Part shown: piece by piece, positions 2,952 through 50,955 of the stretch
How positions within the stretch are numbered: position 1 is the first letter of the stretch
How the letters are laid out: each line of letters starts with the position of its first letter
NCBI GenBank assembly: GCA_964503485.1
Contig: CAZDBH010000003.1
Span: forward strand, 678-64,677
DNA: 64,000 nucleotides
Direction: 5' to 3'
DNA from: an uncultured Bradymonadales bacterium
Lineage (GTDB): Bacteria > Myxococcota_A > Bradymonadia > JAFGEP01
Notes under the pieces: model-generated
The model's input: only the letters and a program-made list of their open reading frames with translations
Databases searched by the model: none
What the model was told of the DNA's origin: nothing
Made by a program: the position numbers and the translations under genes

Positions 2952-3715
2952 AATTCGAGTGCGAAAGCTGTGGTCAGTTAGCCGAGGCCGCCAGTCTCGG
3001 CGTCGAGGACGGCCAAGTCGTCGTCAAATGTAGCCAGTGCGGAGCGATCAACCGCCCCGAATCCAAGGCCGGCAGCGGTCCCCACGAGGCCGCCCCCCTG
3101 GCCGAACAGCGAGAAGAGGTTGCCACCGGCAGCGTCTCGACCTCGGCGGAACCCGTCGAGGAAGAGCCTGAATCACACAGCCAGCCGGGCCCGGTTCGCA
3201 TCCACCACGACGAGATCAAGTGTCCGAAGTGTTTCCATACCCAGCTCGTGCGCTCCAATTGTGCTCGCTGTGGTCTGGACTTGAGTCAATCGGACCTGGA
3301 CAAAGCGCGGTGGGAGCCAGATCCATCAGGCAAGGAAGAGGCCTATGCGCGAGCGCTGGAGCTCTGGGCGCAGATAGAGATATCGCCGGGCGAACGCCAA
3401 CAGCACGAACGGTTTGTGTCTCACTGCACGAATCACCATCTTCTGGACCTGTGTACTAGGCGCTATCGAGAATGGATCTCGGAGAGGCCCGGCGACGAGC
3501 CTGCTACAGAATTCATGATGGTCGCTGTTCAGCGTATGGAGAAAGTGGCACTCGCGATGATGGGTACCCAGGCTTGGGCCGAGAATCTCAAGGACCGCGT
3601 GGCTTCAGTAAGGCGCTTGCTACTGTTTGTTTCGGTCGTGTTGGTCGTGCTCGGGTTGGCCCTGCTCTTCTTGATCATGAAAAAGAAACAAGAGGTACTT
3701 CCCGTCGATCTGTAG
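2948..3715 (+). CDS. MJ0042-type zinc-ribbon protein with a C-terminal transmembrane anchor.
   Basis: The ATG at 2948 overlaps the upstream stop (ATGA). MKFECESCGQ..CSQCGA forms a CxxC..CxxC ribbon and a second CPKC..CARCG pair follows. The terminal LLLFVSVVLVVLGLALLFLIM forms a TM helix. Confidence 0.55.
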   Translation: MKFECESCGQLAEAASLGVEDGQVVVKCSQCGAINRPESKAGSGPHEAAPLAEQREEVATGSVSTSAEPVEEEPESHSQPGPVRIHHDEIKCPKCFHTQLVRSNCARCGLDLSQSDLDKARWEPDPSGKEEAYARALELWAQIEISPGERQQHERFVSHCTNHHLLDLCTRRYREWISERPGDEPATEFMMVAVQRMEKVALAMMGTQAWAENLKDRVASVRRLLLFVSVVLVVLGLALLFLIMKKKQEVLPVDL

Positions 3716-3784
3716 CCTTCCGGTATGACTGATTCGGTGCCATAATGCTTGAACGACTTCAGCCAAGCGGTCGGTAGGAAACGA

Positions 3785-4471
3785 ATGGTTCAGTTCAATC
3801 TGAAAAAGCGCGAAGTTGCAATCAAGATCGTTTACTACGGCCCGCCGTTGAGCGGCAAAACCACGAACCTGCAAGCGCTTTTCGGAGAAGCCGACAAAAT
3901 GTCTCGTGGCCGGCTGGTCACTCTCGAGACACGCGACGACAGAACGATCTACTTCGACATGTTGCCGGTTGTCCTGTCCTCTCGCTCCGGCCATCGTCTG
4001 ACCTTCAAGCTCTACACAGTACCCGGGCAGCCGGTGCACAATGCGACCCGTCGAGTCGTGCTGCGGGGAGTGGATGGGGTTGCGTTTATTGCCAGCAGCG
4101 AGCGCAATGAGCTCGAGAACAACACACTGTCGTGGTCGAACCTATTGGAGAACCTCGAGGCCAATAACCTGAAAATTCAGGACGTCCCGGCGGTCATCCA
4201 GTTCAATAAACAAGACCTGCCAGACGTCCTTACGGCCGCCGAAATGAAGGCCGTGGAACGTTATTCCGGTGTACCGACCTTCGGAGCCACTGTCATTCGC
4301 GGAGAGGGGGCGTACGAAACCCTCAATGGGCTGCTGTTGCGGCTCTGGGATCAACTCTGTGAACGGCAGAACCTCGACAAGCGGCTCGGCTTGACCAAAG
4401 AAGAATTCGCTTCACACGTCAAAAAAGTCTTTGGAAAATCGTTAAATCCCTATGGACGACCTGGGTTCTGA
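3785..4471 (+). CDS. mglA: MglA-family Ras-like small GTPase (paralogue of the mutual gliding-motility protein A).
   Basis: IKIVYYGPPLSGKTTNLQ is the P-loop. RDDRTIYFD carries the intrinsic Arg finger and YTVPGQ the catalytic Gln. NKQDL is the G4 box. It aligns along its length to M. xanthus MglA. A start at 3749 is also possible. No Roadblock/LC7 (MglB) gene is adjacent, so it may be a paralogue rather than the true mglA. Confidence 0.7.
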   Translation: MVQFNLKKREVAIKIVYYGPPLSGKTTNLQALFGEADKMSRGRLVTLETRDDRTIYFDMLPVVLSSRSGHRLTFKLYTVPGQPVHNATRRVVLRGVDGVAFIASSERNELENNTLSWSNLLENLEANNLKIQDVPAVIQFNKQDLPDVLTAAEMKAVERYSGVPTFGATVIRGEGAYETLNGLLLRLWDQLCERQNLDKRLGLTKEEFASHVKKVFGKSLNPYGRPGF

Positions 4472-30918: not shown

Positions 30919-32589
30919 CTAGCCTCGGCGTTTTTTCCGAACCCAGAAGCTGGCGAACACTAGCACAAAACTAGGGAACCAAGAACGACCGCCCCTGGCC
31001 CCCACCTGAACGCAACCCTCCTCGCCCAGACCGTCCTCTCCGACGACTGCGAACCGTGACAACCCAGACTCTTCGGTAGTCGGGGTGCGGATGGCGTCAG
31101 GGGTTCGCCTATTGTCTTGGGTCACGCTGTCTGGCGTGTCCTCCGTCACGTCGGCTTCGGTGTTCAGGTCGGGTGCACTGTCGACCGATGGACTGTCCGG
31201 AGAAGACAGAACGACACTCGTCCAGTTATCGCGTCCCTCGCGGATCTCTACCGAGGTCTCAACCGTTGTGAATCCAGTAGCCGACACGGTGAGATCGTAC
31301 TGTCCTTCGTTCAAGGCATCGAAAACAAAGAACCCGCTCGAGTTGGTCGTCGTCTCGACTCCGCCCTCGAGGGAAACCGAGGCGCCGGGCACGCCCAGTC
31401 CAGTTTCAATCGACTCGGCGCGAACGACCCCGAGTAAGCGGGTACTGACGACTGGGTTCACACTTCGTGTCTGAAGGTTCGGTTGGTAGTGGGAAAGAAT
31501 CTCGAGGTAAGAGTCTCCTCGGGCCGAACGCTCAGCTGTCCCCCACTGGCAGATGCCCCTGACGAGGCAGCGGCCTTCGTCTGGGAAGTCCGGATTCACC
31601 TGGTGCGCTGCACATTGGGAATGACCGCACCAACCACCAGTCGTACACGCTTCTCCGCCTGTGATGTCTGGAATCGTTTCGTCTTGGTATTCCGGCAGGG
31701 TGCCGTGCCTACCGCAGGCCGCGGCGTATTCGTATTTGTCGATGGTGAATTCGCTGTCCTCTTTCACCAGGAACGTACCCGCAGTATCTGCAGCGGCCTG
31801 AACAATCAACTCATGGTAGGGCCCCGACACGTAGCGCTGGTTGCAGGCCGTGTCGTCCAGGTGGTAGTCCGCTTCTGGATCGCGCGCCCAAAACCAAAGA
31901 GCATAGGCTCGAGCAGCGATCGCGAACGTCTTGAAGCCCTCGAGCTGTCCGTCGGCACCGGTCGTAAGACTCCTGAACACGCCAATTTCGGCGGTCACTA
32001 CCCCGGCGGCATAGGTTTCGAGGTCGACCTCTTCGATCCTCAAGATCGGGTTGCCGCTGCAGCTCCCGGCATCGCGGCGACCGACACGAATGGTATTGGG
32101 AATGAGTTCGGGTAGCTCCAGACGGAAGATATCATCACCTGAGGGTGCGTCCGGGTCGCGATCTCGGGCCCAACGCTCCAGCAGGTCAATCGCGCCGCCC
32201 GTAGTAGTAGTAGAGGGCCTCTCGCCCGGCACGCCGACGGCGCCCGGCACGGTCGGAGCCCCGCCGTCGTCGAGCACGAAGGTGCGCCGCGGGTTAGTCA
32301 AATCGACATCGGCACGATCCAACCATTGGCGGAGTGGCTCGTAGCTGCCATCGGAGACCGGAATGAACATCTCGAGGAGGAAGCGTCCCTCTGAGGGTAC
32401 GGCGATCACGTAAAAGCCTTCGTCGTCGGTGAGGGTGTCGACGTCGCCAATTCTGACGATCGCGTCCTCAACCGCTGTTTCCGAAAAGGCGTTGACGACG
32501 TAGCCCATTAACTCGGTCGGCGCAGGCTCAGCTGCAGCCGTTGCCCCAAAACACAGCACAGTCGCTACTATCGCAAAAACAGCCCTCAT
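30919..32589 (-). CDS. SpoIID/LytB-domain protein flanked by carboxypeptidase-regulatory-like domains, with a MYXO-CTERM-like sorting tail.
   Basis: Signal peptide, then GYVVN..T..AIVRI at the N-terminus and a second copy near the C-terminus. The SpoIID core is FKTFAIAARAYALWFWARD. The tail is EEGCVQVGARGG-SWFPSFVLVFASFWV-RKKRRG. Confidence 0.7.
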   Translation of the reverse strand: MRAVFAIVATVLCFGATAAAEPAPTELMGYVVNAFSETAVEDAIVRIGDVDTLTDDEGFYVIAVPSEGRFLLEMFIPVSDGSYEPLRQWLDRADVDLTNPRRTFVLDDGGAPTVPGAVGVPGERPSTTTTGGAIDLLERWARDRDPDAPSGDDIFRLELPELIPNTIRVGRRDAGSCSGNPILRIEEVDLETYAAGVVTAEIGVFRSLTTGADGQLEGFKTFAIAARAYALWFWARDPEADYHLDDTACNQRYVSGPYHELIVQAAADTAGTFLVKEDSEFTIDKYEYAAACGRHGTLPEYQDETIPDITGGEACTTGGWCGHSQCAAHQVNPDFPDEGRCLVRGICQWGTAERSARGDSYLEILSHYQPNLQTRSVNPVVSTRLLGVVRAESIETGLGVPGASVSLEGGVETTTNSSGFFVFDALNEGQYDLTVSATGFTTVETSVEIREGRDNWTSVVLSSPDSPSVDSAPDLNTEADVTEDTPDSVTQDNRRTPDAIRTPTTEESGLSRFAVVGEDGLGEEGCVQVGARGGRSWFPSFVLVFASFWVRKKRRG

Positions 32590-34367: not shown

Positions 34368-34577
34368 GGCGAGCGTAGAGGCTTCCTAAAGCAGGTTTAC
34401 CGGGTGCTGGCAACAGAATTCTCCACTGGGTGGCGAGTAGAGGAACCAGGTGGCAAATATACTAGCCAGTGGGGGTCCCGGCTGGGGCCGAACCACCCCA
34501 GACCCGAACTTAAGCAAGGCATTACAACGACTTACACCTGGAAGGCGAGGGCGTACCGGGTGGATACTCCAGTTGAT

Positions 34578-34617
34578 CTGTCACAACAGACCCCAGATTC
34601 TGAGGGTCTGTGACACA
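34578..34617. promoter_or_regulatory. Imperfect palindrome TGTCAC-N3-AGACCC [11 nt] GGGTCT-G-TGACA, a candidate operator or RNA stem-loop.
   Basis: ctgtcacaacagacccc agattctga gggtctgtgacac. Located about 210-250 bp upstream of the start of ORF 32595-34367. Confidence 0.4.
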
Positions 34618-35150
34618 AATTTCTGGATCTGCGCACGCCACCCAATCGAGGGCGGACACCGGTAACACTCGGAGAGATGAGAAAAACCGGATACAAAACA
34701 ACGATTTAACTATAAACGTGAAATAAAAACAGGACGAAAACCTGTTTTGGCACACAGCTTGTATATGTACTGGTCATTCGCTGGCGATACTGAAAGAGCG
34801 CTGGCACAAATGATTTTTTTTGAATGTTTTTGCTGAATGGCCATCTAACGATTATTGAATGGCTCGAATGATTCGAATGGCTTTTTTTAATGGAATGATT
34901 TTCTTTTTTGACTTCCGCCCTGGATCGTAGTGGTCTTTGGTTTGGATTTAGGTTTCCTGGCGATACACTCGGGCCCCGTCATTGCGTACGGTGTGCTAGT
35001 CGAGTAAACGCCCGGTCGTCGAAAGGCGATAGTCGGGTCGCTTCGGATTACCAGCATTGCGAAGGTAATCAATCGAAGAAGTCAGGGAAGGATCGCAAAC
35101 TGCGATGGGCGTTATCGGCATCCATGCATTTTAATGTACTATTGGGTTGC

Positions 35151-38100
35151 CTATAGATTGGCCCTCGTCAAACGACGAGGGCCTTTTTTCTTTCTTGTTA
35201 GGCCAACCGCAATCAGTCCCATCCAGATCAGGAATCCCCGCGGCGATTCGGCGGTAATCGAACAGGCACAGTCTGAAGGCGGGGTTGTTCGGTCGTCCGC
35301 TGGGGTGTAGCCACCGGTGTCGAAGGAGAAGAGGTCGTCTGCGTCGCCACCGATCGACACCGCGTCAGATTCGTCCTCGACATCAGCACCCATATCTTCG
35401 CCAACCCGATTTGCTATCGTAATCGTGTGGCTGGTCGGCTGGCTGTTCGCACTGCCATCGAATACCACCAAGATGTACGTGCGCTCACTCCCGTCGGGTA
35501 GGTCGGGAACCAAGACGGTGATGAACTCGGTAGAAGGATCGTCGATGGCGACCGCTTCCGGCTCGAGAGGCGTCCAGTAGTGGGTCAACTCACCATCGTC
35601 GGAGGTGGAGTCACGGCCGTCCAATACGATCAGCTCACCGGGGACACCGGTCTCAGGCCCGGTTATCACAGCGGTCGGTATCTGGGCGTTGTTGAAGCGC
35701 TGAACGTCGATTGCGGTCACCCGAGCGTCACTGTCCGACAGGAAATCGCTGACCACGAGTTCGAACTCGAGCGTCACCTGCTCGCCCGGCCCGATGTCAG
35801 GGGCCTCGAGTGTGACGACTGCTTGTTCGTCGTCGAAGGATCCGACCTCTGGACCAGAGACCTGCACCCACAGGAACGAGAGTTCGTCGCCATCTGGGTC
35901 GAAAGACCGTCTGCCGTCGAGTGTAATCAAAGATTGGTCTGCCACCTGCTGGTTGGGGCCTGGATCTGCGATTGGAGGGCTGTTGGGTGGACGGCAGAGT
36001 CCGTCTCGGCAGAAGCCGGCGGTAGGGCACTCGTCGTCGTCGTCACACTCGAATTCGCACACCCCGCCACTGCAATCGGCCTCACCACAGTCGGTTCGCG
36101 TTCCCCGGACACACAGGCCACCGATGTCGCAAATGGCTGGGGGATCGGCGAACCGTCCGCTGCACAGGCCGTCTCCACAGACGTGTCCCACCTCGACCGC
36201 TGCGACTACACAGCTCTCAGCCATTTCGTCGCATGATCCACGCTGACACTCGGCGTCGAGCGAGCTGCAGTCGACGGGTTCGTCACCGCTAGTGCACACG
36301 CCGCTCCTGCAGTGGTCTGCGCCGTTACAATAGGAGCCATCGTCGCAGTCCTCACCCTCGAACTCGTCGCTGTCAACTTCACACTCGTCCGTTGTGGTGT
36401 TGCAAACGCCCAGGTTGCACGTGTCGGTGAGGTGTTCGCAGGTGGGCGCAGAGCCGGGGCGACACACGCCTGAGCCGCAGATTTCGGCGCCATTGCAGAA
36501 GACGCCGTCACTACAGGACTCACCGTTCAAGATTGACGCGTCGCGTTCGCACTCATCCGTTCTGACGTTACACACCCCGACACTACACTGATCATCTAGA
36601 TCAGAGCAGTCGGTCTCGCCACTGCCTACGCAGAGCCCTCGCGCATCGCACGTGTCATTTCGGGTGCAAAAGGTCTCATCGTCACAGACCGCTCCAACCT
36701 CAGGTACCCAGCCCGTTTCATCCACACTCGGATCGCAGATTTTACACTCGCCCTCGGCGGGTCGTTCATCCTCCCGGTAGCACTCGCCGTCGACCACGCA
36801 TCCAACGCAGCAGATCGAGTCCACACAGCGACTAGAGGCGCACTGCCGATCGTCACTGCAGGTAAGCCCCTCCTCCAGCAGGATCGTCGTCGCGACCCCC
36901 GTGAGTTGTGTCCAACCCAGCAGGTTCACCGCATCGCCGACCGGTGTTCCCGACGAAGAGACCATCTGGGCGTTCCCGTGGTCCCCCACGACGATGAACT
37001 GACTCCCTGTCCAAGCAGCAGAACGTACCGTCGCGCCCTCGAGGGCGACGTTCACTGCGCTGGCCCGCGAACCGAACGCATCGAGAAGCTGAACACCACC
37101 GCCGTCGCCCACAGCCAAAGCGTTCGTTCCATTCCAAACTAGAGCGTGAGTGCATTCCCCTTCGAGTATTTCGGCATAGGCATCCAGTCGGCCGATTGGA
37201 ATGCCTGCGGCGCTGACGCGTTGAATCGCATCGCAGCCCGCAATCAGCCACTCTTCACCGTTCCATTCGACGGCCTGCACCGCTTCCCCATCGAAAACCG
37301 AGATGCTTGCCACTGCCAGCTCGCCGTATTCGTCCGCTCGCCGAATCGCACCCGTGCTTCCGAAAAGAAACTCTCGGCCGTTCCAGGCTGCAGAGCTGAT
37401 CGTCAGACCGTCAAACACGGATACCGGGTCACTTGTCGGTGTTCCCGTGTCGTCCAGAAACACGAACTGACCGTTGCTCGAAGCCAACAGCCAACCGGCT
37501 CCTCGAAACAGGAGAATCGGTGTGGCACCAACGTCCTCGGCGAGTTCGGTATCGGCCGGTTCCTTTACCAGGGGCCCCTCGAGGACCAGCTGACGTGTCC
37601 ACCGGTGGGACGCAGCGAGCCAAAGAGAGCCGTCCCAACTCACCGTAGTGCGCCTAGTCTGCTCTGAAAACACCGTGAGCGGTACTGGGGGCTCGTCGGC
37701 TACGCCCGCATCCGAGACCGTGCTCACTGCCCCAAACTCTCCAACCAGGAGCCACTCGACTCCGGTCCAGGTCGCGGCGTGTATCGAATGACCACCCAGT
37801 GCGCGACCGACTTCTGAGGTCGGAACGCCCGAGGTGCTGAGCAAGCGAAACTGACCGTAGTCGCCCACTGCCACGATCGACTCGGAACCGTCAAAGGCTA
37901 GATCATGGATCCATCCGTCCAACACCTCGACGGGGTCGTCGATTGAGCCCCCTTCGTGAAGGAGCTGAACGAAGCCCGTATCGCCTGCAATCAACCAATC
38001 GGTGCCGTTGTAGAGGATACTCGTGACGACCTCAAAGCTGGTTTCGACACAGGTGCCGACCTCATCGGAAGCATCTACAAAACAGACGCTTCCACCCTGG

Positions 38101-38807
38101 CCGCCGACGATCCAACCCGCTCCGGCCTCGGCTGCCGCGAAGAGAGCGGAGCCGCCCGTCGGTTCGTAAATCGTACCAGTCGGCACGCCGCCGGATGTGA
38201 CCCGCTGCGCTTCTCCATTCAATCCGACAACAAGCCATTGGGTTCCGTTCCAGGCAGCGGCATTGACCGCGGTGCTGTTCAGCGCGGTCCGGGCAGGACC
38301 CACGTCGAAACTGGAGTCGATGCGGACAATCTGCCCTTTCGAACTCGTCACGAGCCAATCGGAACCACTCCAACTCGCACTGAGCGCATTGCCAGACTCG
38401 AACGGTGTGAGGCTCGAGTGGGTCCCTTGGAGACCGTCCTTGTCCAACTCTCCAACCGTGTTTTCATCTCCGAGGGCGAGTGCCGAGGCGTCGCCCCAGA
38501 TAACATCGTTTAGGGTCTCTTCACCCAGAGGTGGTGCCCAGGCGGATCCACCGTCGAGCGTCTCGAAACGCGTTGCGACTCCATCTTGCCCGACCACGAC
38601 GAACTGCGGCTGCGCTGCTAGGGCAGTGGGCAGAAGAAAGATGAGTGTGAATGGGAGCGCAAGGATCGAGTGTCGAAACTGAGTGGGGACTGTTTGGATG
38701 AGGCTACTGGAACCGTGCAAGAGTGCCCTCGTACGACGATGGAATAGGATCCCGTAGGGGCGCGGGCTGAGAAGAATCGAGGAGGCTAGAACTGACCTCC
38801 GAGCCAA
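35151..38807 (-). CDS. Giant secreted surface protein with N-terminal W-x-G propeller-like repeats, Cys-rich repeats (myxobacterial disulfide-repeat type), PKD-like domains and a MYXO-CTERM-like tail.
   Basis: Signal peptide, then eight or more copies of about 40 aa with [AV]xW[NT]G..[WF]L[IV][AV]G..G. A block of CxxGxCxxxxxxC / DxxCxxGxC repeats follows. PKD-like (IADPGPNQQV...LDG..S.DPDGD.L...W) and Ig-like domains come next. The terminal DCACS..FLIWMGLIAVGL-TRKKK is the MYXO-CTERM-like tail. Confidence 0.75.
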   Translation of the reverse strand: MARRSVLASSILLSPRPYGILFHRRTRALLHGSSSLIQTVPTQFRHSILALPFTLIFLLPTALAAQPQFVVVGQDGVATRFETLDGGSAWAPPLGEETLNDVIWGDASALALGDENTVGELDKDGLQGTHSSLTPFESGNALSASWSGSDWLVTSSKGQIVRIDSSFDVGPARTALNSTAVNAAAWNGTQWLVVGLNGEAQRVTSGGVPTGTIYEPTGGSALFAAAEAGAGWIVGGQGGSVCFVDASDEVGTCVETSFEVVTSILYNGTDWLIAGDTGFVQLLHEGGSIDDPVEVLDGWIHDLAFDGSESIVAVGDYGQFRLLSTSGVPTSEVGRALGGHSIHAATWTGVEWLLVGEFGAVSTVSDAGVADEPPVPLTVFSEQTRRTTVSWDGSLWLAASHRWTRQLVLEGPLVKEPADTELAEDVGATPILLFRGAGWLLASSNGQFVFLDDTGTPTSDPVSVFDGLTISSAAWNGREFLFGSTGAIRRADEYGELAVASISVFDGEAVQAVEWNGEEWLIAGCDAIQRVSAAGIPIGRLDAYAEILEGECTHALVWNGTNALAVGDGGGVQLLDAFGSRASAVNVALEGATVRSAAWTGSQFIVVGDHGNAQMVSSSGTPVGDAVNLLGWTQLTGVATTILLEEGLTCSDDRQCASSRCVDSICCVGCVVDGECYREDERPAEGECKICDPSVDETGWVPEVGAVCDDETFCTRNDTCDARGLCVGSGETDCSDLDDQCSVGVCNVRTDECERDASILNGESCSDGVFCNGAEICGSGVCRPGSAPTCEHLTDTCNLGVCNTTTDECEVDSDEFEGEDCDDGSYCNGADHCRSGVCTSGDEPVDCSSLDAECQRGSCDEMAESCVVAAVEVGHVCGDGLCSGRFADPPAICDIGGLCVRGTRTDCGEADCSGGVCEFECDDDDECPTAGFCRDGLCRPPNSPPIADPGPNQQVADQSLITLDGRRSFDPDGDELSFLWVQVSGPEVGSFDDEQAVVTLEAPDIGPGEQVTLEFELVVSDFLSDSDARVTAIDVQRFNNAQIPTAVITGPETGVPGELIVLDGRDSTSDDGELTHYWTPLEPEAVAIDDPSTEFITVLVPDLPDGSERTYILVVFDGSANSQPTSHTITIANRVGEDMGADVEDESDAVSIGGDADDLFSFDTGGYTPADDRTTPPSDCACSITAESPRGFLIWMGLIAVGLTRKKKGPRRLTRANL
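35161..35190 (+). terminator. Plus-strand intrinsic-terminator-like hairpin (GCCCTCGTC-AAAC-GACGAGGGC followed by CTTTTTTC) lying inside the last codons of the minus-strand adhesin gene.
   Basis: Perfect 9-bp GC-rich stem, 4-nt loop and a T-run on the plus strand only. It follows the small plus-strand ORF 34908-35156. Confidence 0.5.
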
Positions 38808-39859
38808 ACGCCGGCATCAGCGCCTCCTGGGTTGCCGATTCCCCAATCCCAGCAGACACCCGTGCAATCCGTTGTGTCGTCGCTAGCCCCACCTGCTGTG
38901 AGATACACGACCAGACCAGCTGCTACGCCGGCGATGCCTACGCCGTAGAGGATAAATGACAACGTCTTTGCACTGTCGAGGTCTTCTCTCAGCGAGTTGA
39001 ACTCGTCCTCGTCGCCCGCTGCTGCGGCTGCTTCATAGTCGTCAATGGTTCCGCCACCGGCGGCATCGTGAATGATCGCACCGAGAAGAACGGCACCGCC
39101 GACCCCAGTGATAACCAGTCCGAGAGTCCGTTGAGAGGCGCCGGCTGCTTCGAGGGCCTCCTCATTCTGTCTCTTGGTCTCTTCGCAAGCGGCTCGTGCT
39201 TCCTGGCAGCCGGTCGCGTCGACGCACTGTTCAGCGCGAACGAGGTCGCTTCGGGCCTCTTGTTTGATTCGTTCTTCGACGTCCGAGGCCTCGATGACCT
39301 GTGCGTTGAGGAACGTGATCGCGTCCTGACAGCGAGACAGGTGGTACAGAACGTCTGCATAGAGCATCCGCGCCTCTGGCTCGTCGCTGGATTCTCGCGC
39401 TTCAGCAATCAACTGCTCAGCCTCGGGTAGCTGCCCCGAGTTGATGGCGTTTTCGGCCGCTGTCAGAGCCGAGTCGTAGGCTTCAGCACACTCGGTCTGG
39501 CCTGGCTCGTGCTCTTCAGCTTGGCTCAACGCCTGAGTGTCTCCGCTGTTGAGGTACTGACGGAAGAACTGGCTGGCGGGCACACAGCGATCGGCCTGTT
39601 GGTAGGCTCGTGCAATATTGTAGAGCAGCACCGGTACCGCTTCGCAGTTGTAGGCTTGTTGAAGTACTTCAGCAGCTTCGAGGTAGCGATTGCTTCGGAA
39701 GTACTCCGCTCCTTGAGCGGCCAAGTCTTCTACGTTCTGGGTGCAGTCTTGAGCCCACGCATTTGAAGTCGCTAGTGATGTCAGCGTGATCAATGCGGTC
39801 ACGAGAACGCGTTTTGTTGTTCGTGTATTCATCAGCATCCACCTGGGCTCTTGGTCCAC
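38786..39859 (-). CDS. Secreted TPR-like repeat protein with C-terminal membrane-spanning segments.
   Basis: Signal peptide (LVTALITLTSLATSNAWAQD). TPR-like helices (YFRSNRYLEAAEVLQQAY, YNIARAYQQADRC). C-terminal hydrophobic segments (LGLVITGVGGAVLLGAII, FILYGVGIAGVAAGLVVYL). An alternative start is at 39838. The ORF-track frame overlaps the 3' end of the adhesin ORF by 22 nt. Confidence 0.5.
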   Translation of the reverse strand: MDQEPRWMLMNTRTTKRVLVTALITLTSLATSNAWAQDCTQNVEDLAAQGAEYFRSNRYLEAAEVLQQAYNCEAVPVLLYNIARAYQQADRCVPASQFFRQYLNSGDTQALSQAEEHEPGQTECAEAYDSALTAAENAINSGQLPEAEQLIAEARESSDEPEARMLYADVLYHLSRCQDAITFLNAQVIEASDVEERIKQEARSDLVRAEQCVDATGCQEARAACEETKRQNEEALEAAGASQRTLGLVITGVGGAVLLGAIIHDAAGGGTIDDYEAAAAAGDEDEFNSLREDLDSAKTLSFILYGVGIAGVAAGLVVYLTAGGASDDTTDCTGVCWDWGIGNPGGADAGVWLGGQF

Positions 39860-40305
39860 GTAACAGTGATGGGCGAGAGGACATCGTGTTCCGTACTGTC
39901 ATTGTTGTACGGCACGACCAGTAGCTCGTGGTCCTCCGGGTGGTCGGAGGCCAACGAGCACACCCTCACGTCGAGCTGGACTGAGGTCAGGGCGCGATCG
40001 CCTTGAACAATTGGCTCTCCGTCGATGTAGATCCTCACATGCCCCTGCGTTTCGACGTTTTCCCCTCCCGGGTCGACTAGCGAGAAATTCGTCGCCTCCA
40101 AACGTATTCGCAGAATATTCTCCACTGATTCGCCATCCGTTGGCGAAGTAACGGTCAGCTTTGGCGTTCCGTCGACGGTGCCGAGCTCGACGCCATCTGG
40201 ATCATAAGCAATCAAACAGCCAGACAGACCCAGAATTAAGGTGGTCAGTCCAAGCCATGCGATCAAGGAAAGCATCCGTGGTTTTCCGAACTGCCTCATA
40301 CCCAT
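39832..40305 (-). CDS. Lipoprotein of unknown function.
   Basis: Lipobox LILGLSGC after a basic n-region. 157 aa, beta-rich. Apparently co-operonic with the TPR protein. Confidence 0.5.
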   Translation of the reverse strand: MGMRQFGKPRMLSLIAWLGLTTLILGLSGCLIAYDPDGVELGTVDGTPKLTVTSPTDGESVENILRIRLEATNFSLVDPGGENVETQGHVRIYIDGEPIVQGDRALTSVQLDVRVCSLASDHPEDHELLVVPYNNDSTEHDVLSPITVTWTKSPGGC

Positions 40306-40632
40306 CCCGTCTCCCTGAGCGTTCTGGTCGACTCGGATTGTCCCGAGTGTCGAACCGAAAAAGAAAAAAACGTCTGTTAAATAACGACTATGACTTCATA
40401 CGTTCGGGGACTGTAACACAAGGCGATTCAGGCTTCCACAAATCCGGATTGTCTGTGTAAATCGGACGCCCGCCCCCAATCAGACCTCGGAAATCGCCTC
40501 CAAAATCGTGACGATCTCTGTGGGGCTTTGACCTGAGTCAGGAATTTGGTAATGCTGCTGGCCTGTTTTGACGTGGAACCTGCAGTACCGCCCTCCGCCG
40601 TGTTGCAGCATCAGATAACTCAAGGAGAGATT

Positions 40633-41316
40633 ATGAAAACTGGTCTTATCGCCGTGCTGTTCGTCTCGACCGCTATCGCGGGGGTCGCCTTCGCAGCCTC
40701 CGACTACCCGATTTCTGAAGATGTCGACGACGCGCGCGTTGCCCAAGACGTACCAGCGGTGGGAAGTGAAACCGCCGAAGACATTCTCGCCACGGTCCCC
40801 GGTGAAGGTCGGATTCACATGACTCTGACAACGTCCCTCGGCGCACTGCACTGCGTGATGTTCGACAACCTCGTGCCGAACACGGTGGCCAACTTCGTAG
40901 GTCTTGCCACGGGCATCAAAACCTTCGTCGACCCCGCGACCGGCGAACCGACCCGTCGTCGTTTCTACGATGGTCTGATTTTCCACCGAGTGATTCCTGA
41001 CTTCATGATTCAGGGTGGAGATCCACTCGGCAACGGCACGGGTGGACCCGGCTATCGCTTCAATGATGAGTTTCATCCCGAGCTGCGCCACGATCGTGGC
41101 GGACTCTTGTCCATGGCGAATTCGGGTCCCAACACCAATGGCAGCCAGTTCTTCGTCACAGAGCGGCCAACTCCGCACCTGGACAACCGTCACAGCGTCT
41201 TCGGCGCCTGCGACGAAATCGACCTGATTCGCACAATCGCTCGCGTACCGACGGGGCCCCGCGACAGGCCGCTGGAGCCAGTCACGATCGACTCCGTCGA
41301 GTTCGAGCGGCGCTGA
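40633..41316 (+). CDS. Peptidyl-prolyl cis-trans isomerase, cyclophilin type, secreted.
   Basis: AAGGAGAG RBS, then MKTGLIAVLFVSTAIAGVAFA as signal peptide. Cyclophilin motifs: FHRVIPDFMIQGGDP, GLLSMANSGPNTNGSQFF. Confidence 0.85.
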   Translation: MKTGLIAVLFVSTAIAGVAFAASDYPISEDVDDARVAQDVPAVGSETAEDILATVPGEGRIHMTLTTSLGALHCVMFDNLVPNTVANFVGLATGIKTFVDPATGEPTRRRFYDGLIFHRVIPDFMIQGGDPLGNGTGGPGYRFNDEFHPELRHDRGGLLSMANSGPNTNGSQFFVTERPTPHLDNRHSVFGACDEIDLIRTIARVPTGPRDRPLEPVTIDSVEFERR

Positions 41317-42378: not shown

Positions 42379-44667
42379 CTAGTCGTCGATAACTGGCCTC
42401 AGAATCGAGAGGCCCAGCACCCCCGAGAGCGCTTCTATCGAGCGATCGGGCGTGTAGGAATCGCCGATACCGAAGGTCTGAAACAGACTGGGAACGGCTG
42501 CCTCTTCAGGGCGCTGACGGATGATCCGGGCCGCGTAATTGAGTGGGTCGACCTGTTCGAAGTACATCTGGATCAGATTGAGAACAGGATGAAACTCGGA
42601 AGTGGACTCCTGCAGAACCAGACTGATACCGGAGGCGATATCGACCGGTTCGCTCTTTTCGAGCAGCGACAACAGAAGCCCCCCACCTGTTCCGCTGAGA
42701 ACGATAGCCGCGTAACTGTGGTCGGCTGCGGCCGCAATCGAACCGACGGTGCCTCCTTGCGAGTGACCAAAAAACACCAGGTTGGCTGGATTGAAGCGGA
42801 TAATGCCCGTGGTCGGTGAGTCGGCCCCAGCCACAGAAAAAGTCTCGGCAAATCGGCCATAGCTCAACACGTCGACTGCGCCTTGCAGCACGTTGCCGTG
42901 ACTGGCCCTGGGGTTGATGAAGTTGAAGAAGAGGCCGTCCGGTGGATCGGTCGAGTCGCCCCTGCGGTTGCCGTGCTGGACTCCGTCGTACCCGATCGTG
43001 GCGTATCCCATCTCGGACAACTCACTGCCAAGTTCGTCGACGTGGCCGCGGAAATTGCCCCCAGTCCCGTGGGCATAAACGACGACGGGCCAACCTTCAG
43101 CCGGCATGCTCGAGGTCTTCGGGACAGTGATCGTTGTACATACCGGCTCAGTGCGCTGCAGAATGGCGACTCCGCCGTCATCGAAGAGCAGTCCCCCGTC
43201 CTGTTCTAGATAGGGCGGTTCACCCACCTGAAAGACCGGAATCTCAACCGTGGTGTGAATCTCGAAGTGGTCTTCGCTTTCGGTGAAACAACCGCGGACA
43301 TGGTCTTCACCGTCCAATCCATCGTCGCATGGAGAAGTAGCGCCCTGACTGCAAAGCACGAGTTCGTCGTTCGTCGGCGGGTCCAACAGATCGAGTGCGG
43401 CCGAAATGCCATCGATCGGTTGGTCGGGATCGTCGATCGTGAAAACGGCCGCGGCCATGATGGTGCCTGAGGGTACGCCGACATCCAGGAGGTAAGTCCG
43501 CAGGGGGGCGTAGGCGTCCCATGCAGCGACCAGTTCTTGGTCCTCGGGCTCTCGCCCGTTCATCATGAGGGTAAAATCGTCTGACTGGACTGGCCGGTCG
43601 CCGTTTCGGCTGCGTATCCCATCAGTGATGATTGTGGCGTAAGTCGATCCGTGCTCGAAAGCCTGTGACCAAAGCGGTCGCACTGCTAGCCAGTTGTTGC
43701 AGATGAACGAACCGCGACCGTCGGTTGCCGACCAACTCAGCGATGTCCTGCGACCGTAGTTTCGGGATTCCGGAGTGATGTTGACCAGAGAGAGCACGGG
43801 GCTGTCGCCCGAGATGGTCACGCTGTCTGGATCGGGAAACTCATTGAAGCGAAAGAAGCCGGCTTGGTGGGTGCCAAACCCTGAGATATCGGCCTCGGCC
43901 TGCTCGATGAGTGTCTTGATGACATTGCCCACCACGTCGAGTTCTGGGCGTGGGTGCCCTGAAAGATCGACCCGACCGCCTGAGATGCGGATATCGTTTG
44001 GAAAGGGGAGTCGATAGAACTCCGTGACCTCTTCGTCCGAACGTGGAATTTCAAAAAACACTTGGAAATCACCGCCGTCTGGGATGCCTGGTGGCTCGCA
44101 CTCGATGGGTGTCACGAGCACCAACCCGCCGCCGGCTGCACCAGGTGTGCAGGCGGTTGCGTTCACCGTGGGATCGGGCTGAATGCATCCCAGGCCTGCT
44201 AGGCAATCAGCGGTCGATTCGCACTCGTCGCCCGAGTCGCCGATGCCAGGCTCTGCACAGACACCCACGAAGCCGCGCAGCTCACAGTAGAGTCCGGACA
44301 CACAATCACCGCTAGAATTGCAGGATTCGTCGATTTCGGATTCGCCCGCCTGAGCGCAGATACTGATCTCACTGCAGTACAGATCGTCTGCACACTCGCC
44401 ACTCAACGTGCAGCGACCGCCCTCGGGTTGGCTTCCCGTGGCAGTGCACAAGCCATCGTCGCAGCGGAGGCCGGTTCTGCAATCGCCGGCCACCGAACAG
44501 CTTTCGCCGACTCCTGCCCCTTCCGGCACTGCTGTAGGGGACTCTTCGCCTCCGAAAACAGCGTCGCAGCCGGCCATACAGAACAAGAAGGCACCGAGGC
44601 CGAAAAGCATCGCGGTGCGTTTTTTCCAGGCATGATGAGAACCGTTACTACGGTTTGATTGGTACAC
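42379..44667 (-). CDS. Secreted Cys-rich alpha/beta-hydrolase (lipase/esterase-like).
   Basis: Signal peptide, N-terminal CxxxxC-rich modules, then the nucleophile elbow FFGHSQGGTVGS and downstream Asp/His candidates. 762 aa. Confidence 0.6.
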   Translation of the reverse strand: MYQSNRSNGSHHAWKKRTAMLFGLGAFLFCMAGCDAVFGGEESPTAVPEGAGVGESCSVAGDCRTGLRCDDGLCTATGSQPEGGRCTLSGECADDLYCSEISICAQAGESEIDESCNSSGDCVSGLYCELRGFVGVCAEPGIGDSGDECESTADCLAGLGCIQPDPTVNATACTPGAAGGGLVLVTPIECEPPGIPDGGDFQVFFEIPRSDEEVTEFYRLPFPNDIRISGGRVDLSGHPRPELDVVGNVIKTLIEQAEADISGFGTHQAGFFRFNEFPDPDSVTISGDSPVLSLVNITPESRNYGRRTSLSWSATDGRGSFICNNWLAVRPLWSQAFEHGSTYATIITDGIRSRNGDRPVQSDDFTLMMNGREPEDQELVAAWDAYAPLRTYLLDVGVPSGTIMAAAVFTIDDPDQPIDGISAALDLLDPPTNDELVLCSQGATSPCDDGLDGEDHVRGCFTESEDHFEIHTTVEIPVFQVGEPPYLEQDGGLLFDDGGVAILQRTEPVCTTITVPKTSSMPAEGWPVVVYAHGTGGNFRGHVDELGSELSEMGYATIGYDGVQHGNRRGDSTDPPDGLFFNFINPRASHGNVLQGAVDVLSYGRFAETFSVAGADSPTTGIIRFNPANLVFFGHSQGGTVGSIAAAADHSYAAIVLSGTGGGLLLSLLEKSEPVDIASGISLVLQESTSEFHPVLNLIQMYFEQVDPLNYAARIIRQRPEEAAVPSLFQTFGIGDSYTPDRSIEALSGVLGLSILRPVIDD

Positions 44668-45366: not shown

Positions 45367-47358
45367 TCAATCGGAAATAGTCGGGATACCGTCGACTGCC
45401 GTACTCCAAAAGTTCACGGCGCGGAGGCGAGCCTCCTCGATATTATAGATCGTATAGTGCCCCTGTGAACCATCTAGAATCGTCGCGATTGTAAGAGACG
45501 ACCCGTCCACCGCACTCGTATTGCCTGACAGAGGCAAGCTCTGCGCCTCCATGTCCCACACGCCAAAGGGATCGACGTCCCAGCCAGCCGGGTCGATGGG
45601 CGTCACCGACCCCGCGATGGTGATCGCGTTCAATGACCGCGTGGGCGTGGTCACGTCGAGCATTCCGTTGATGAGCAGTAGATTCGAGCCCTCGGTATGC
45701 TCTTGCCATCCGCGCCATCTCGACGCGTAGCTGAGCGTATCGGACACCTCCCCTCCCATCTGTGCAAGCGCGACCAATGGATGAAACCGAGTCAGGGGGC
45801 GGCTGAGCCCCAATATGCCCTGAATCTGGGCATTGATGTCGATCGGGTCCTTTCGGTCAACGATCGTAATCGACAGATAACCACCAATCCCGTTTAGGGC
45901 GTAGGCGGCGATTTCGGTTTCAACACCAGCTGCGATCGCCCCGACCAACGCCCCCTGCGACTGGCCCCCGTAGATCAGCCGGTCAGTATTCAGCTCGGGT
46001 AGACCCTCTAGGCCGTCGAGCCCCTCCCTCAACAGCCTGACGAAGTACGCGGTATCGACGACCTGCTGCCTGAGGACGGTCCTTCCCGACTCGGGGTTCA
46101 GGTAATTGAAGGTGTGAGTGGTTGGGTCCGCACCTGTAGAGGCGCGTTGACCGTGGAACTGGGCCTCGAAACTGGCGATTGCAATGCCTTCGCGGAGTAG
46201 CAGCCGGGTGATCGGAGAGGTGACGAAGCTGTCGAGTGTCGCGCCAGTTCCGTCTTCCCAGATGAAGACCGGAAACGGTGGTTCACGATTTTCTGGAAAG
46301 GTAATGATGAAAGGCACCTCTTCGTAGCGTTGAATCCTCGGCAACCCGTCGCTGTCGTACTCGACACCTCCGCCCGAGTTATAAGGAGATTGACCTCGTT
46401 GAAAAATCGGCGACTCGAATGTTCCAGTGTAGGTCGCCGTCTGACCCGAGATCGACGCGTCATCATCTATCGCCCAGTTGCTTACAGTTGGGGCCTGAGT
46501 GGCGTCCGGATCGACCGCCACTGCTCGCATCGCAATGAGTTCTTCGGTCGGGTCTTGGGTGGTGAACACCGTCGCGACGGCGATCTCCTCGCTCGTCAAC
46601 CCCGCACCGTCCAGGCAGTCTCGCAGCGGGGCGAGGCTGTCGTTGAGAGCCTGATCCGATGAGCTGCCCGCGAGGGCCTCGGCGAAGAGCGAAGGCGTCG
46701 CAGTGACGTAGCCGGCCTCTGAACCAAAGGTTGTTGTAACGACGAGAGCATAACTGGTCACGGGCTCGAGAACGAAGCCTGGGACTGGTGCGATGGACAG
46801 CACACCCTCATCGACGAAGGCGTCCCCCTCTTCCTCGAAGACCGACTCCACCGGTATCCTCTGGTCGCAGCCCTCACTGAGGTTGATCAACTGGATCGAC
46901 GAGTCGGCCGCCAGGGTCTCGGACGGCTCGGGAATGGCCTCAGGGAGCGGGGTGTCGAATCGGACATAAATCACTGGAACGGTGGCAAAACCGTGCACGA
47001 ACTCGGTCAACACGCCCAGATACAGGTCGACGAATGGGTTGTTCGATTCCGGGAAATCGCCCAAGTCGAGGCTTCCGTCGTCCGTCACTCTGTGGTCCGA
47101 GGGCCACGGAAAGGCATAAAAACCGCTGTCGTCCGCTGCGTAGCTAGGCGTGAGCGTGCCGCTGTTTTGGGTCTCGTCTGGTGCGTCCGCGGTCGCGTCG
47201 ACCGTGTCGTCCGATGTGGCGTCATCGCCGCAAGACAGCTGAAACAGGACAGTCGCACACAATAATAGCCGGCCGAGTGGCCGTGTTCTACTCATCTTCG
47301 TTCGCTCCATACGCCAATGCGGCGCGGATTGTAGCAGAATCCGTGCAGAGGAAAACAA
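45367..47358 (-). CDS. Secreted alpha/beta-hydrolase, paralogue of 42379-44667.
   Basis: Signal peptide (LLLCATVLFQLSCG), a GxSxG elbow (YGGQSQGALVGA) and collinear similarity to the upstream hydrolase. 663 aa. Confidence 0.6.
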   Translation of the reverse strand: MFSSARILLQSAPHWRMERTKMSRTRPLGRLLLCATVLFQLSCGDDATSDDTVDATADAPDETQNSGTLTPSYAADDSGFYAFPWPSDHRVTDDGSLDLGDFPESNNPFVDLYLGVLTEFVHGFATVPVIYVRFDTPLPEAIPEPSETLAADSSIQLINLSEGCDQRIPVESVFEEEGDAFVDEGVLSIAPVPGFVLEPVTSYALVVTTTFGSEAGYVTATPSLFAEALAGSSSDQALNDSLAPLRDCLDGAGLTSEEIAVATVFTTQDPTEELIAMRAVAVDPDATQAPTVSNWAIDDDASISGQTATYTGTFESPIFQRGQSPYNSGGGVEYDSDGLPRIQRYEEVPFIITFPENREPPFPVFIWEDGTGATLDSFVTSPITRLLLREGIAIASFEAQFHGQRASTGADPTTHTFNYLNPESGRTVLRQQVVDTAYFVRLLREGLDGLEGLPELNTDRLIYGGQSQGALVGAIAAGVETEIAAYALNGIGGYLSITIVDRKDPIDINAQIQGILGLSRPLTRFHPLVALAQMGGEVSDTLSYASRWRGWQEHTEGSNLLLINGMLDVTTPTRSLNAITIAGSVTPIDPAGWDVDPFGVWDMEAQSLPLSGNTSAVDGSSLTIATILDGSQGHYTIYNIEEARLRAVNFWSTAVDGIPTISD

Positions 47359-48855: not shown

Positions 48856-50955
48856 ATGACCAAGCGCCCGATAGTCTCAATTTCTCTTGCTCTACTGCTC
48901 GTTTCGGCCTGTGGAGACGAAACAGTTCCCGTCGAAGAAGATACCCGTTGCTCGTCCAGCGAAACCTGCCCCGATGGGGAGGTCTGCCGGTCTGGCTTCT
49001 GCGCCGATGCGCCTGAATGCGATCTTCTGACCGACTGCGGCGAGGGCGAAAACTGTCTCGAAAGCGTGTGCGCATGGGATCCGGACGTCTGCTTGTCAGA
49101 CAACGACTGCGACGAGAACTTGATCTGTGATGTCGGTGAGTGCCGAGAAGGCTGTCGTAATGACAACCAATGCGGTGACACAGAACTGTGTACCAGCGAT
49201 TTGGTCTGCGAGCGGAAGCCATGCACAGAACTGGCTTGCGATGAGGGCTACGACTGCATTGAGGACACTGGGCTCTGTCAGCTCCGACCCTGTAACGGCG
49301 GATGTGATGAGCCCTTACAGTGCCGGGAGAGCGACGATCAGTGTGTCGAGTGTTTCGAAACCGACGAGTGTGGCACCTCGCAAACCTGTACAGAGGACGG
49401 TTTCTGTCTCGAGGACTCCTGTGAGGTCCACGAACAATGTGAAGAGGGCACCTTCTGCATCAACGAGTTCTGCGAAGCACCTCCCGAGTGCGAAGACGAC
49501 GAGTTTGAAGACAACGACGAATACGACGACGGTGGCCTACTCGCCGAAGGCGTGTACACCGACATCGTGTCGTGTCCTTATGACGAGGATTTCTTCAAGG
49601 TCGTGGCCGACGCCAACCACAGCCTGACGGTCACCGTCGACTTTTTGCACGAAGACGGCAACGTCGAGCTCGAAATCTTCAACACAGTCGGTGTGCTATT
49701 CGCCCGTCGCATCAGTAGTGATGACGACGAGTCGATTACCGTGAACATCGGAACAACCGGCGTCTACACGATCCGTATCTGGCAAGATGCTGGCACGCAG
49801 GGCGTCGACTACTCCTTGACGATGGAGACGGGTCAACCGGTGGAAGTCGCTGCTGACCTTTGCGTCCCCGACGCATTCGAACCCAACGAAGACGTCGAAT
49901 CAGCCACCGAGATTTTCTCAGGACGGTGGACGGGCATGTCGATCTGTGAGGACGACTCCGACTACTACGATATCCCGGCCCAACCCGGCGAGATTATCGA
50001 AGTTTGCGTCACCCCGTCCGAGCTCTACGACAAGACACTGGGTCTCGAGGTTCTGGCAGAAGGTGAAGGCGTCATCTTGACGGCCGCCGGGCGAACCGAA
50101 TTCTGCGTCGATGAAGACCTTTCACTCGGCACCGCCTTCTACGCACATGTCTTCTCAACGGCCGATGGTGACGAAACGCCATACCACGTAACCTTCGACG
50201 TCAGGCCAGGCTGTCGCATCTACGACGACGCCTACGACCAGGCCGGCACACACGATCGTATGCCGCGGGATGGTGAAGATCCGCTCGCCCCCCTCGAAGA
50301 GCTTCCGGCCGAGCTTCGAGTCTGCCCAAGTGACTCGGACTACTGGCCTGTCGATCTGCTCTGGCGCGATCAACTCTCGGCGAACATCACGTTCGTTCAC
50401 GATGATGGCGATTTGCAGCTGAAACTCCACCGGCCCAATGGCAGTGCGAGATTGGGCAGTTCCGGGAGGACGGACACCGAGGTTATTGAATACCAAGCCG
50501 AAGAGAGCGGTACCTACTTTCTGCGAGTCTACGGAGAGGCCGACGCCATGGGACCGTACACTATCGACTACTCGGTTACTGCCTACTGCGAAGAAGACGA
50601 GCATGAAGACAACGATGACAGCGACTCTGCTGCGGAACTTGCCATTGGCGACCACGTCGACCTTTGGCTGTGCAACGAAGACGATGACTTCTTCAAGTTC
50701 AGCGTTGCCGACGACGCGGAGGCCGAACTGACCGTGGCGCTCAGTTTTGAGGCCAGCCAGGGCATCTTGTCTTTGTCAGTCGCACCGCCCGGCGGCGACT
50801 TCGTCGAAGCCGAGGGTTCGGGTGGCGAGTGGGCGGTCGTGGTTTGGCCCGCCCCCCGGTTCAAGGGGGGCACGCAAATTTTAACAATCAAGGTTGACGG
50901 GGCCGACGGAACAGAGAACACCTACGACCTGAGTATCGCGTTAGGCGGAGAGTAA
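48856..50955 (+). CDS. Lipoprotein with an N-terminal Cys-rich (CxxGxC) repeat region followed by four PPC (bacterial pre-peptidase C-terminal) domains.
   Basis: Lipobox LLLVSAC. About 200 aa contain more than 30 Cys in CxDGxC / CxxxxC spacing. Four modules each carry E[DP]N[DE]....A and a downstream D.D[YF][YFW] motif (DEDFFKV, DSDYYDI, DSDYWPV, DDDFFKF). Confidence 0.7.
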   Translation: MTKRPIVSISLALLLVSACGDETVPVEEDTRCSSSETCPDGEVCRSGFCADAPECDLLTDCGEGENCLESVCAWDPDVCLSDNDCDENLICDVGECREGCRNDNQCGDTELCTSDLVCERKPCTELACDEGYDCIEDTGLCQLRPCNGGCDEPLQCRESDDQCVECFETDECGTSQTCTEDGFCLEDSCEVHEQCEEGTFCINEFCEAPPECEDDEFEDNDEYDDGGLLAEGVYTDIVSCPYDEDFFKVVADANHSLTVTVDFLHEDGNVELEIFNTVGVLFARRISSDDDESITVNIGTTGVYTIRIWQDAGTQGVDYSLTMETGQPVEVAADLCVPDAFEPNEDVESATEIFSGRWTGMSICEDDSDYYDIPAQPGEIIEVCVTPSELYDKTLGLEVLAEGEGVILTAAGRTEFCVDEDLSLGTAFYAHVFSTADGDETPYHVTFDVRPGCRIYDDAYDQAGTHDRMPRDGEDPLAPLEELPAELRVCPSDSDYWPVDLLWRDQLSANITFVHDDGDLQLKLHRPNGSARLGSSGRTDTEVIEYQAEESGTYFLRVYGEADAMGPYTIDYSVTAYCEEDEHEDNDDSDSAAELAIGDHVDLWLCNEDDDFFKFSVADDAEAELTVALSFEASQGILSLSVAPPGGDFVEAEGSGGEWAVVVWPAPRFKGGTQILTIKVDGADGTENTYDLSIALGGE

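Follow-up and report, generated by a model that had tools for sequence, protein, structure and literature searches.

What does a 1218-codon open reading frame (ORF) encode when its N-terminal half matches no named protein family? The ORF in question lies on the minus strand, at 35151..38807, of a 64,000-nucleotide stretch of DNA (hereafter the window; G+C ~59%) from an uncultured Bradymonadales bacterium (contig CAZDBH010000003.1 of assembly GCA_964503485.1). An earlier note on this DNA had described a surface protein with a novel repeat propeller, myxobacterial Cys-rich repeats, PKD domains and a MYXO-CTERM-like tail. The length and position of the ORF were borne out by the ORF list and its translation, and two peptides quoted from it were located at residues 184-203 and 345-364; as a whole, what had been observed was largely right and what had been made of it was partly supported. 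With somewhat more than even confidence, we conclude that the gene encodes a secreted, surface-anchored binding protein, in which a double propeller is carried on a stalk that ends in a MYXO-CTERM-type sorting tail. From this architecture a role as an adhesin or lectin is plausible, and prey contact is an attractive guess. The ORF can be taken as a real gene, since it has orthologues (P0152, 73% identity, and P0006, 45% identity) and since the genes around it stand in the same order in the orthologous loci. Residue numbers throughout follow the 1218-residue translation.

The N-terminal half is built from units of about 40 residues. The earlier note had counted eight or more of them, evenly spaced; in iterated searches with hidden Markov models (HMMs) the repeats proved real, but their number rose to 14. 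Twelve are clear and begin at residues 139, 179, 222, 259 and 299 (blades 3-7) and at 340, 384, 428, 468, 508, 551 and 592 (blades 8-14), while the two that precede them, at residues 68-138, are degenerate. As a non-circular test, a blade HMM was trained solely on other members of the family (173 blades). It found 12 blades in the window protein with 207.7 bits, whereas 200 shuffled versions of this region gave at most two domains and 7.5 bits, which places the repeats far above what chance would give.

Structure prediction bears on how these units fold. AlphaFold, given a 3-sequence alignment, produced a model with a predicted local distance difference test (pLDDT) score of 71, and with 16 family sequences the score was 87.9 (predicted template modelling score 0.62), mostly above 90 in the half that holds propeller 1. 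The model is all-beta; each unit has three to four strands, and short strands at the termini could close a ring. When both models were compared with the PDB by Foldseek, 14-blade tandem propellers ranked first (2ymu with E 4e-21 and a template modelling (TM) score of 0.56, Aip1/WDR1, Utp21, COPI beta-prime and CFAP52), and the best 50 PDB matches were all multi-blade propellers. The view that the units are beta-propeller blades is upheld by the quality of the model and by these leading matches, and the 14 blades are predicted to fold as two seven-bladed beta-propellers in tandem (7+7). Propeller 2 is the best-conserved part of the family alignment.

We then asked to which repeat family the blades belong. 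Residues 66-647 gave no Pfam or NCBIfam match even at E<=10, propeller families such as YVTN, NHL, Kelch and WD40 included. The units thus match no named repeat family, as had been claimed, and YVTN, NHL and Kelch, the families singled out by the earlier note as those that could overturn its claim, are absent. An exhaustive HMMER search of 1.84 billion representative proteins returned 218 matches at E<1e-3, with 27 clusters at E<1e-30 forming the core family. Large surface proteins make up most of the weaker matches (E 1e-27 to 1e-5); in them, copies of the motif W-[NSD]-G-x-x-[WFY]-h and of the Asp-box S-x-D-G-x-x-W are equally frequent (blade consensus L..VaWNGsqfVAVG..GtiltS.dg..w). Pfam DUF6242 was matched by 31 of the 53 distant relatives, and PSII_BNR/Ycf48 by one. 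Those that have the blade motif carry SLH, SbsC, Cu_amine_oxidN1, dockerin, Ig-like or C-terminal anchor modules.

The window blades share with these WNG/Asp-box propellers (DUF6242 and, distantly, PSII_BNR/Ycf48) the motif W-[NSD]-G-x-x-[WFY]-h-h-h-G-x-x-G in register, a period of ~40 residues, an extracytoplasmic or surface setting and whole-domain HMMER E-values down to 1e-24. They differ in that the Asp-box is replaced by a D-x-x-G-x-P turn, and neither DUF6242 nor PSII_BNR matches the window protein. The core-family blade consensus, G..i.aaaWnG..WLVgG.gG.vqrldadG.p.g, reads d-a-d-G-x-p at the Asp-box position; the core family does not carry S-x-D-x-G-x-x-W in most blades, and S.DG..W occurs 0-1 times in core proteins but 5-66 times in the distant relatives. 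In the ungapped blade consensus the half-blade motif W-N-G-x-x-W/F-h-h-h-G-x-x-G is in register between the core and the Asp-box classes. When the blade profiles were compared by hhalign, the core matched the Asp-box class with 96.9% probability (E 1.8e-10) and a third, probably archaeal class with WNGEYWLIGG...KYDG blades with 97.2%, a comparison that is partly circular since both classes were picked from the family's own HMMER matches. Three members of the third class (P0041, P0046 and P0049) are small, probably archaeal membrane-anchored proteins made almost entirely of WNGEYWLIGG...KYDG.F.DLT repeats, which no Pfam family covers; one of them has an EarA-like winged-helix N-terminus. The only DUF6242 member that has been placed experimentally is BamH (Bt3727), a surface lipoprotein of the Bacteroidetes beta-barrel assembly machinery (BAM) with a six-bladed propeller without a known role, whereas the window protein has 14 blades in two propellers.

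The closest solved folds for the 572-residue domain are tandem WD40-type propellers (2ymu, Aip1/WDR1, Utp21, COPI beta-prime; Foldseek E 4e-21 to 1e-15, TM ~0.45-0.56), to which the family profile also gave weak sequence matches. Identity to these is however at most 14%, Pfam WD40 is not matched, the GH and WD dipeptides are absent, and the setting is extracellular and bacterial rather than that of a cytoplasmic scaffold. A PDB sequence search with a 3-sequence profile gave nothing significant, and with a 16-sequence profile weak WD40-type matches at E 7.5e-7 to 1e-3 (WD40-derived designs, CFAP52, WDR1). No solved sequence relative of the propeller was found in these PDB searches, and the DUF6242-like relatives P0042 and P0043 matched PDB entries through their other domains only. 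In the large protein library, WNG-type proteins rank above WD40 proteins. Since the WNGxxW-hhhG-xxG motif is common to the weaker surface-protein matches, most of which match DUF6242, we read the window blades as probably belonging to the WNG/DUF6242-like blade type, in which they would form an unnamed branch without Asp-boxes; WD40 would be a remoter relative. To call the repeat novel was therefore too strong, because its motif recurs in a widespread surface-protein class and in an archaeal one.

Behind the propellers lies a disulfide-rich region with 43 Cys, in which three tandem modules of 56-57 residues, with eight Cys each, begin at residues 708, 765 and 821. The earlier note had assigned these modules to the Myxococcus Cys-rich repeat TIGR02232 and had proposed an HMM check, which we ran and which does not bear the assignment out. 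The isolated region of the window protein matched neither TIGR02232 nor TIGR04201, nor any other NCBIfam or Pfam family, at E<=10; that of P0001 had no NCBIfam match at the same threshold, and the whole window protein matched neither TIGR family at E<=1. A shorter Cys-rich region, with many invariant Cys, stands at the same position in all family members. The PKD domains were recovered with scores above Pfam's own cut-offs, as K319L-like_PKD in two stretches (43.9 bits, cut-off 27) and as PKD_4 (28.0 bits, cut-off 27). Residues 936-1158 align to the C-terminal 220 residues of NF038112, the model for myxosortase-dependent M36 metallopeptidases (5e-27), which points to a PKD-plus-tail cassette common to the window protein and these peptidases; the window protein has no M36 peptidase domain and scores 93.5 bits against a family cut-off of 1500. 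Among the predicted parts, an acidic linker comes between the PKD/Ig-like domains and the tail.

The predicted MYXO-CTERM-like tail was also found, with the expected three-part layout at the extreme C-terminus, in which the membrane helix is free of charged residues and Pro (...PPSDCACSITAESPRG-FLIWMGLIAVGL-TRKKKGPRR; ...PPSDCACSITAESPRGFLIWMGLIAVGLTRKKKGPRR...). Its two Cys are not adjacent, which agrees with the typical GCGC form in Haft's description; the basic cluster is Lys-rich and is followed by ten extra residues. With 14.7 bits (E 0.03) it stays below the curated 20-bit cut-off of TIGR03901. That model is nevertheless the top family for 16 of the 20 aligned family tails, with a best E of 1.9e-8, and Cys1180 of the window protein aligns with the invariant Cys of the family.

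The family is small. A word-indexed homologue search recovered only two to three proteins, and the family became visible only through the exhaustive HMMER search, with ~27 close clusters among all representative proteins searched. These clusters share the order of propellers, Cys-rich region and MYXO-CTERM, and most add a lipoprotein signal. Core members have 790-980 residues, with a lipoprotein signal, 14 blades, a Cys-rich region of ~170 residues and the MYXO-CTERM tail. The window protein, P0152 and P0006 stand apart as a subgroup: their signal peptide is plain, their Cys-rich region is enlarged and PKD domains have been added. Most members (P0001, P0004-P0026; loci L001, L003, L004 and L005) combine an N-terminal lipobox Cys with a C-terminal MYXO-CTERM, and such proteins are predicted to carry two lipid anchors. 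The relatives come from metagenome-assembled genomes (MAGs) labelled Bradymonadaceae, Myxococcota or 'uncultured proteobacterium'. A metagenome scan for further loci of the window type returned distant relatives only.

The best-understood protein of the same overall design is TraA of Myxococcus xanthus, which has a PA14 head, TIGR04201 repeats and a MYXO-CTERM and is sorted by MrtX. TraA consists of a lectin-like head, a stalk of Cys-rich repeats and a MYXO-CTERM (PMC3325183); the architecture of this signal, its cleavage by myxosortase and the sorting of TraA to the surface have been described in M. xanthus (PMC11980579). Both proteins have a signal peptide, an N-terminal binding head, a Cys-rich stalk and a tail of Cys, helix and basic residues, and they share the setting at the level of the phylum and the predicted route to the surface. 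The window protein differs in having a double seven-bladed propeller as its head where TraA has PA14, in its two inserted PKD domains, in Cys-rich modules that neither TIGR04201 nor TIGR02232 matches, in a tail that scores under the HMM cut-off and in the lack of a TraB-like OmpA partner beside the gene. Pfam found no PA14 in the window protein, and the neighbouring genes encode a lipoprotein, a TPR membrane protein and a DUF6178 protein.

By analogy with TraA, the window protein would be exported by Sec. A myxosortase, which in Bradymonadales is MrtP, would then cut the tail at the conserved Cys; this Cys would be lipid-modified and the protein moved to the outer face of the outer membrane. 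Because TraA has the same layout, we take the Cys-rich region and the PKD domains to form a rigid stalk, which would keep both propellers at a distance from the cell, and the propellers to form a head that may bind an external ligand, such as a glycan or protein on prey, kin or substrate. In this proposal the domain order and the tail come from the sequence, and the surface route and the roles of stalk and head from the analogy. MYXO-CTERM proteins are abundant in Bradymonadales, which also have the myxosortase MrtP (bioRxiv 10.1101/2023.06.07.544157) and are predators (PMC7460792). Surface exposure is further supported by the modules of the distant relatives and by fast divergence. Compared with the orthologous locus L006, the window protein is 73% identical (propellers 70-72%, Cys-rich region 79%), whereas the values are 92% for the TPR protein, 92% for the 157-residue lipoprotein, 93% for a cyclophilin, 86% for the DUF6178 protein and 74% for a SpoIID-like protein. 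The gene is thus the least conserved in its 10-kb neighbourhood and the propellers are its most divergent part. The two proteins with a sorting-type tail, the window protein and the SpoIID-like protein, diverge faster, which fits surface exposure.

Several points weigh against a surface-anchored binding protein. No ligand, binding site or phenotype is on record for any family member. Gene neighbourhoods are not conserved beyond close relatives, and therefore the context gives no functional clue. The tail, as said, misses the MYXO-CTERM cut-off and is Lys-rich instead of Arg-rich, and a motif screen of the 64-kb window found no myxosortase gene and no CPBP-like ORF. Propellers can also be enzymes or scaffolds. 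If they served here as subunits of a structural coat or envelope scaffold, S-layer-like or belonging to an outer-membrane machinery as BamH does, and made protein-protein contacts inside the envelope of their own cell, it would be understandable that S-layer proteins with SLH and SbsC domains are found among the distant relatives that have these blades, that DUF6242 is the propeller of BamH, which sits beside a FadL-like barrel and peptidyl-prolyl isomerases, and that most family members have anchors at both ends. The surroundings offer some further support: in the Bradymonadaceae MAG locus L003 a FadL/Toluene_X outer-membrane protein is encoded directly after the family gene (2739-4451, plus strand), and the probable operon in the window holds a lipoprotein and a TPR membrane protein, with a secreted cyclophilin nearby. 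We still regard a scaffold as unlikely. DUF6242 is connected to the window protein only at two removes, through a short blade motif, and does not match that protein itself; the FadL neighbour occurs in one locus only; and propellers that diverge fast are more readily understood as an outward-facing recognition surface than as a conserved subunit of a machine.

Asp-box (BNR) propellers include sialidases and related hydrolases, and so the protein might be a surface-displayed enzyme that acts on prey or matrix polysaccharide with a glycoside-hydrolase- or lyase-like propeller site (sialidase, GH74-type BNR). One distant relative weakly matches the NCBIfam 'F510_1955 family glycosylhydrolase', and a SpoIID-like cell-wall enzyme with a similar tail is encoded two genes downstream. 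The Asp-boxes are however lost in the family, no hydrolase family in Pfam or NCBIfam matches the window protein, its best structural matches are non-catalytic scaffolding propellers, and, framework Gly and Trp aside, the propeller alignment shows no invariant charged or polar candidate for catalysis; we consider an enzyme very unlikely. A narrower version of the binding role would make the protein a polymorphic receptor for the recognition of self or prey, as TraA is, with propellers in place of the PA14 head. Here the parallel of head, Cys-rich stalk and MYXO-CTERM (PMC11980579) counts in favour, together with the head domains being the fastest-evolving part of the least conserved gene around. 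That comparison covers two alleles only, though, and PA14, the TIGR04201 repeats and an adjacent OmpA-type TraB partner are all absent, so in this specific form the proposal seems improbable to us. The broader reading as a surface-anchored binding protein is the one we retain.

The gene itself is most likely shorter than the ORF. Position 38807 is merely the first possible start of the longest ORF and implies a 22-nucleotide overlap with the upstream gene. The most likely true start is the TTG at 38720, which would give 1189 residues: an identical NCBI protein (P0153; 1189 residues, N-terminus MHGSSS) begins there, the alignment to the orthologue P0152 begins there, and a GAGGG stands 5 nucleotides upstream. 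The earlier extent therefore holds for the ORF, but its start probably does not hold for the protein. Signal-peptide cleavage is predicted after A-L-A, and there is no lipobox; P0006 and P0152 have equivalent signal peptides. The coordinates of all features are collected in the table.

Table. Features of the propeller gene and its surroundings, in window coordinates (residues in 1218-residue numbering)
Feature	Coordinates	Strand	Basis
Likely coding sequence, 1189 residues plus stop	35151..38720	-	P0153, P0152, GAGGG near TTG
Predicted signal peptide, residues 30-64	38616..38720	-	Read from sequence: FRHSILALPFTLIFLLPTALA, then AQ
Predicted propeller 1, blades 1-7, residues 68-339	37791..38606	-	Repeat HMMs, AlphaFold, Foldseek
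Predicted propeller 2, blades 8-14, residues 340-640	36888..37790	-	Repeat HMMs, AlphaFold
Disulfide-rich region, residues 645-935, 43 Cys	36003..36875	-	Read from sequence
Two PKD/Ig-like domains, residues ~936-1125	35433..36002	-	Pfam
MYXO-CTERM-like sorting tail, residues 1176-1218	35154..35282	-	DCAC motif, hydrophobic helix GFLIWMGLIAVGL, basic cluster RKKKGPRR
Intrinsic-terminator-like hairpin and TTTTTT	35160..35189	+	Terminator scan
Ultra-conserved noncoding element, ~290 nucleotides	34905..35192	+	91-95% nucleotide identity to L006
157-residue lipoprotein gene, upstream	39832-40305	-	ORF, translation
357-residue exported TPR protein with two C-terminal membrane helices, upstream	38786-39859	-	Pfam TPR
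SpoIID/LytB-like protein with carboxypeptidase-regulatory-like domain	30919-32589	-	Cys/helix/basic tail GCVQVGARGGRSWFPSFVLVFASFWVRKKRRG

The two upstream envelope genes (38786..40305) are probably in the same operon as the propeller gene, and the pair has the same order and spacing in the orthologous loci L006-L009. Downstream follow an intergenic stretch of ~780 nucleotides (34368-35150), the DUF6178 gene and the gene for the SpoIID/LytB-like protein, which is predicted to be a second MYXO-CTERM-type surface protein in the window. This gene order is kept in close relatives only. In L001, L004 and L005 the genes downstream bear no relation to the neighbours in the window, and the co-occurrence of SpoIID in L001 was dropped as a functional link. 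A secreted cyclophilin is encoded 1.7 kb upstream of the propeller gene (40546-41316, plus strand); together with the FadL protein of L003 it resembles the set of BamH, FadL-like barrel and isomerase of the Bacteroidetes BAM, maybe by coincidence. Further away lies a cluster of large secreted proteins (42379-44667 and 45367-47358 on the minus strand, 48856-50955 on the plus strand). Two of these have weak VolA/Pla-1 phospholipase-like regions and Cys-rich N-termini, and one is very rich in Cys and Asp and has pre-peptidase C-terminal (PPC) domains. The cluster suggests a neighbourhood rich in exported proteins.

The 3' end of the gene holds a further signal. As the earlier note had seen, it doubles as a terminator for the opposite strand: inside the last 11 codons lies a hairpin (35160-35183; a 10-bp stem with eight G-C pairs and the loop AAAC), followed on the plus strand by TTTTTT, which we take as a probable plus-strand intrinsic terminator. 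Read on the minus strand, the sequence behind the hairpin is AAUCUAUAGG, and the hairpin thus does not serve as terminator of the propeller gene itself. Its stems are invariant in the locus L006 of the 73%-identity orthologue, where one loop base differs. The hairpin encodes the last residues of the protein, KKKGPRRLTRANL, and other family members lack most of this extension behind the basic cluster.

The hairpin closes a noncoding element of ~290 nucleotides that converges on the propeller gene and overlaps its 3' end by ~40 nucleotides. It is the least expected item at the locus. Its nucleotide identity to L006 is far above that inside the propeller gene (58-82%) and in the neighbouring genes (58-85%). 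No ORF is conserved on either strand of the element between the two loci: an 82-residue plus-strand ORF was rejected on account of a stop and a frameshift in L006, and a minus-strand ORF because it has only non-synonymous changes. The minimum free energy is -97.4 kcal/mol for the plus strand (z -3.2) and -75.2 kcal/mol for the minus strand, and all seven substitutions in predicted pairs keep the plus-strand pairing through G-U intermediates, in a comparison of two distinct sequences. Apart from terminator-hairpin matches, Rfam (in gathering and E-value modes) and ARAGORN returned nothing for the element, and nhmmer found it in syntenic loci only, with no further copies. Our best guess, for which these data are suggestive, is a small RNA of no known family that converges on the gene.

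An AT-rich region just upstream of the element (34790-34905) has repeated GAATG(G) motifs (tgaatgg, cgaatga, cgaatgg, ggaatga). This region could be a promoter, an UP element or a set of regulator binding sites; a sigma-70 scan of it found no promoter. Two more intergenic blocks, at 34565-34625 and 34400-34495, are conserved. One of them is a hairpin, TGTCACAGACCC...GGGTCTGTTGTGACA, and the other, just upstream of the DUF6178 gene (minus strand), is perhaps a promoter or leader.

A bolder proposal would join the gene and the element. The double propeller would then be the recognition head of an unrecognised class of MYXO-CTERM receptors specific to Bradymonadia/Myxococcota, a counterpart of TraA with another head that serves contact with prey or kin, and its expression in this lineage would be coupled to the convergent small RNA whose terminator sits in the last codons of the receptor. 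We give this combined proposal little credence.

The fold, the modular design and the sorting signal of the window protein are all of known kinds, and the result is useful rather than surprising. The family is very rare, and neither Pfam nor NCBIfam detects it; with a model of its own, Bradymonadia/Myxococcota genomes would be better annotated, and the protein is a reasonable subject for studies of the surface biology of predators. Moreover, the protein is a candidate for contact or recognition in a group that likely includes predators and in which few surface receptors are known.

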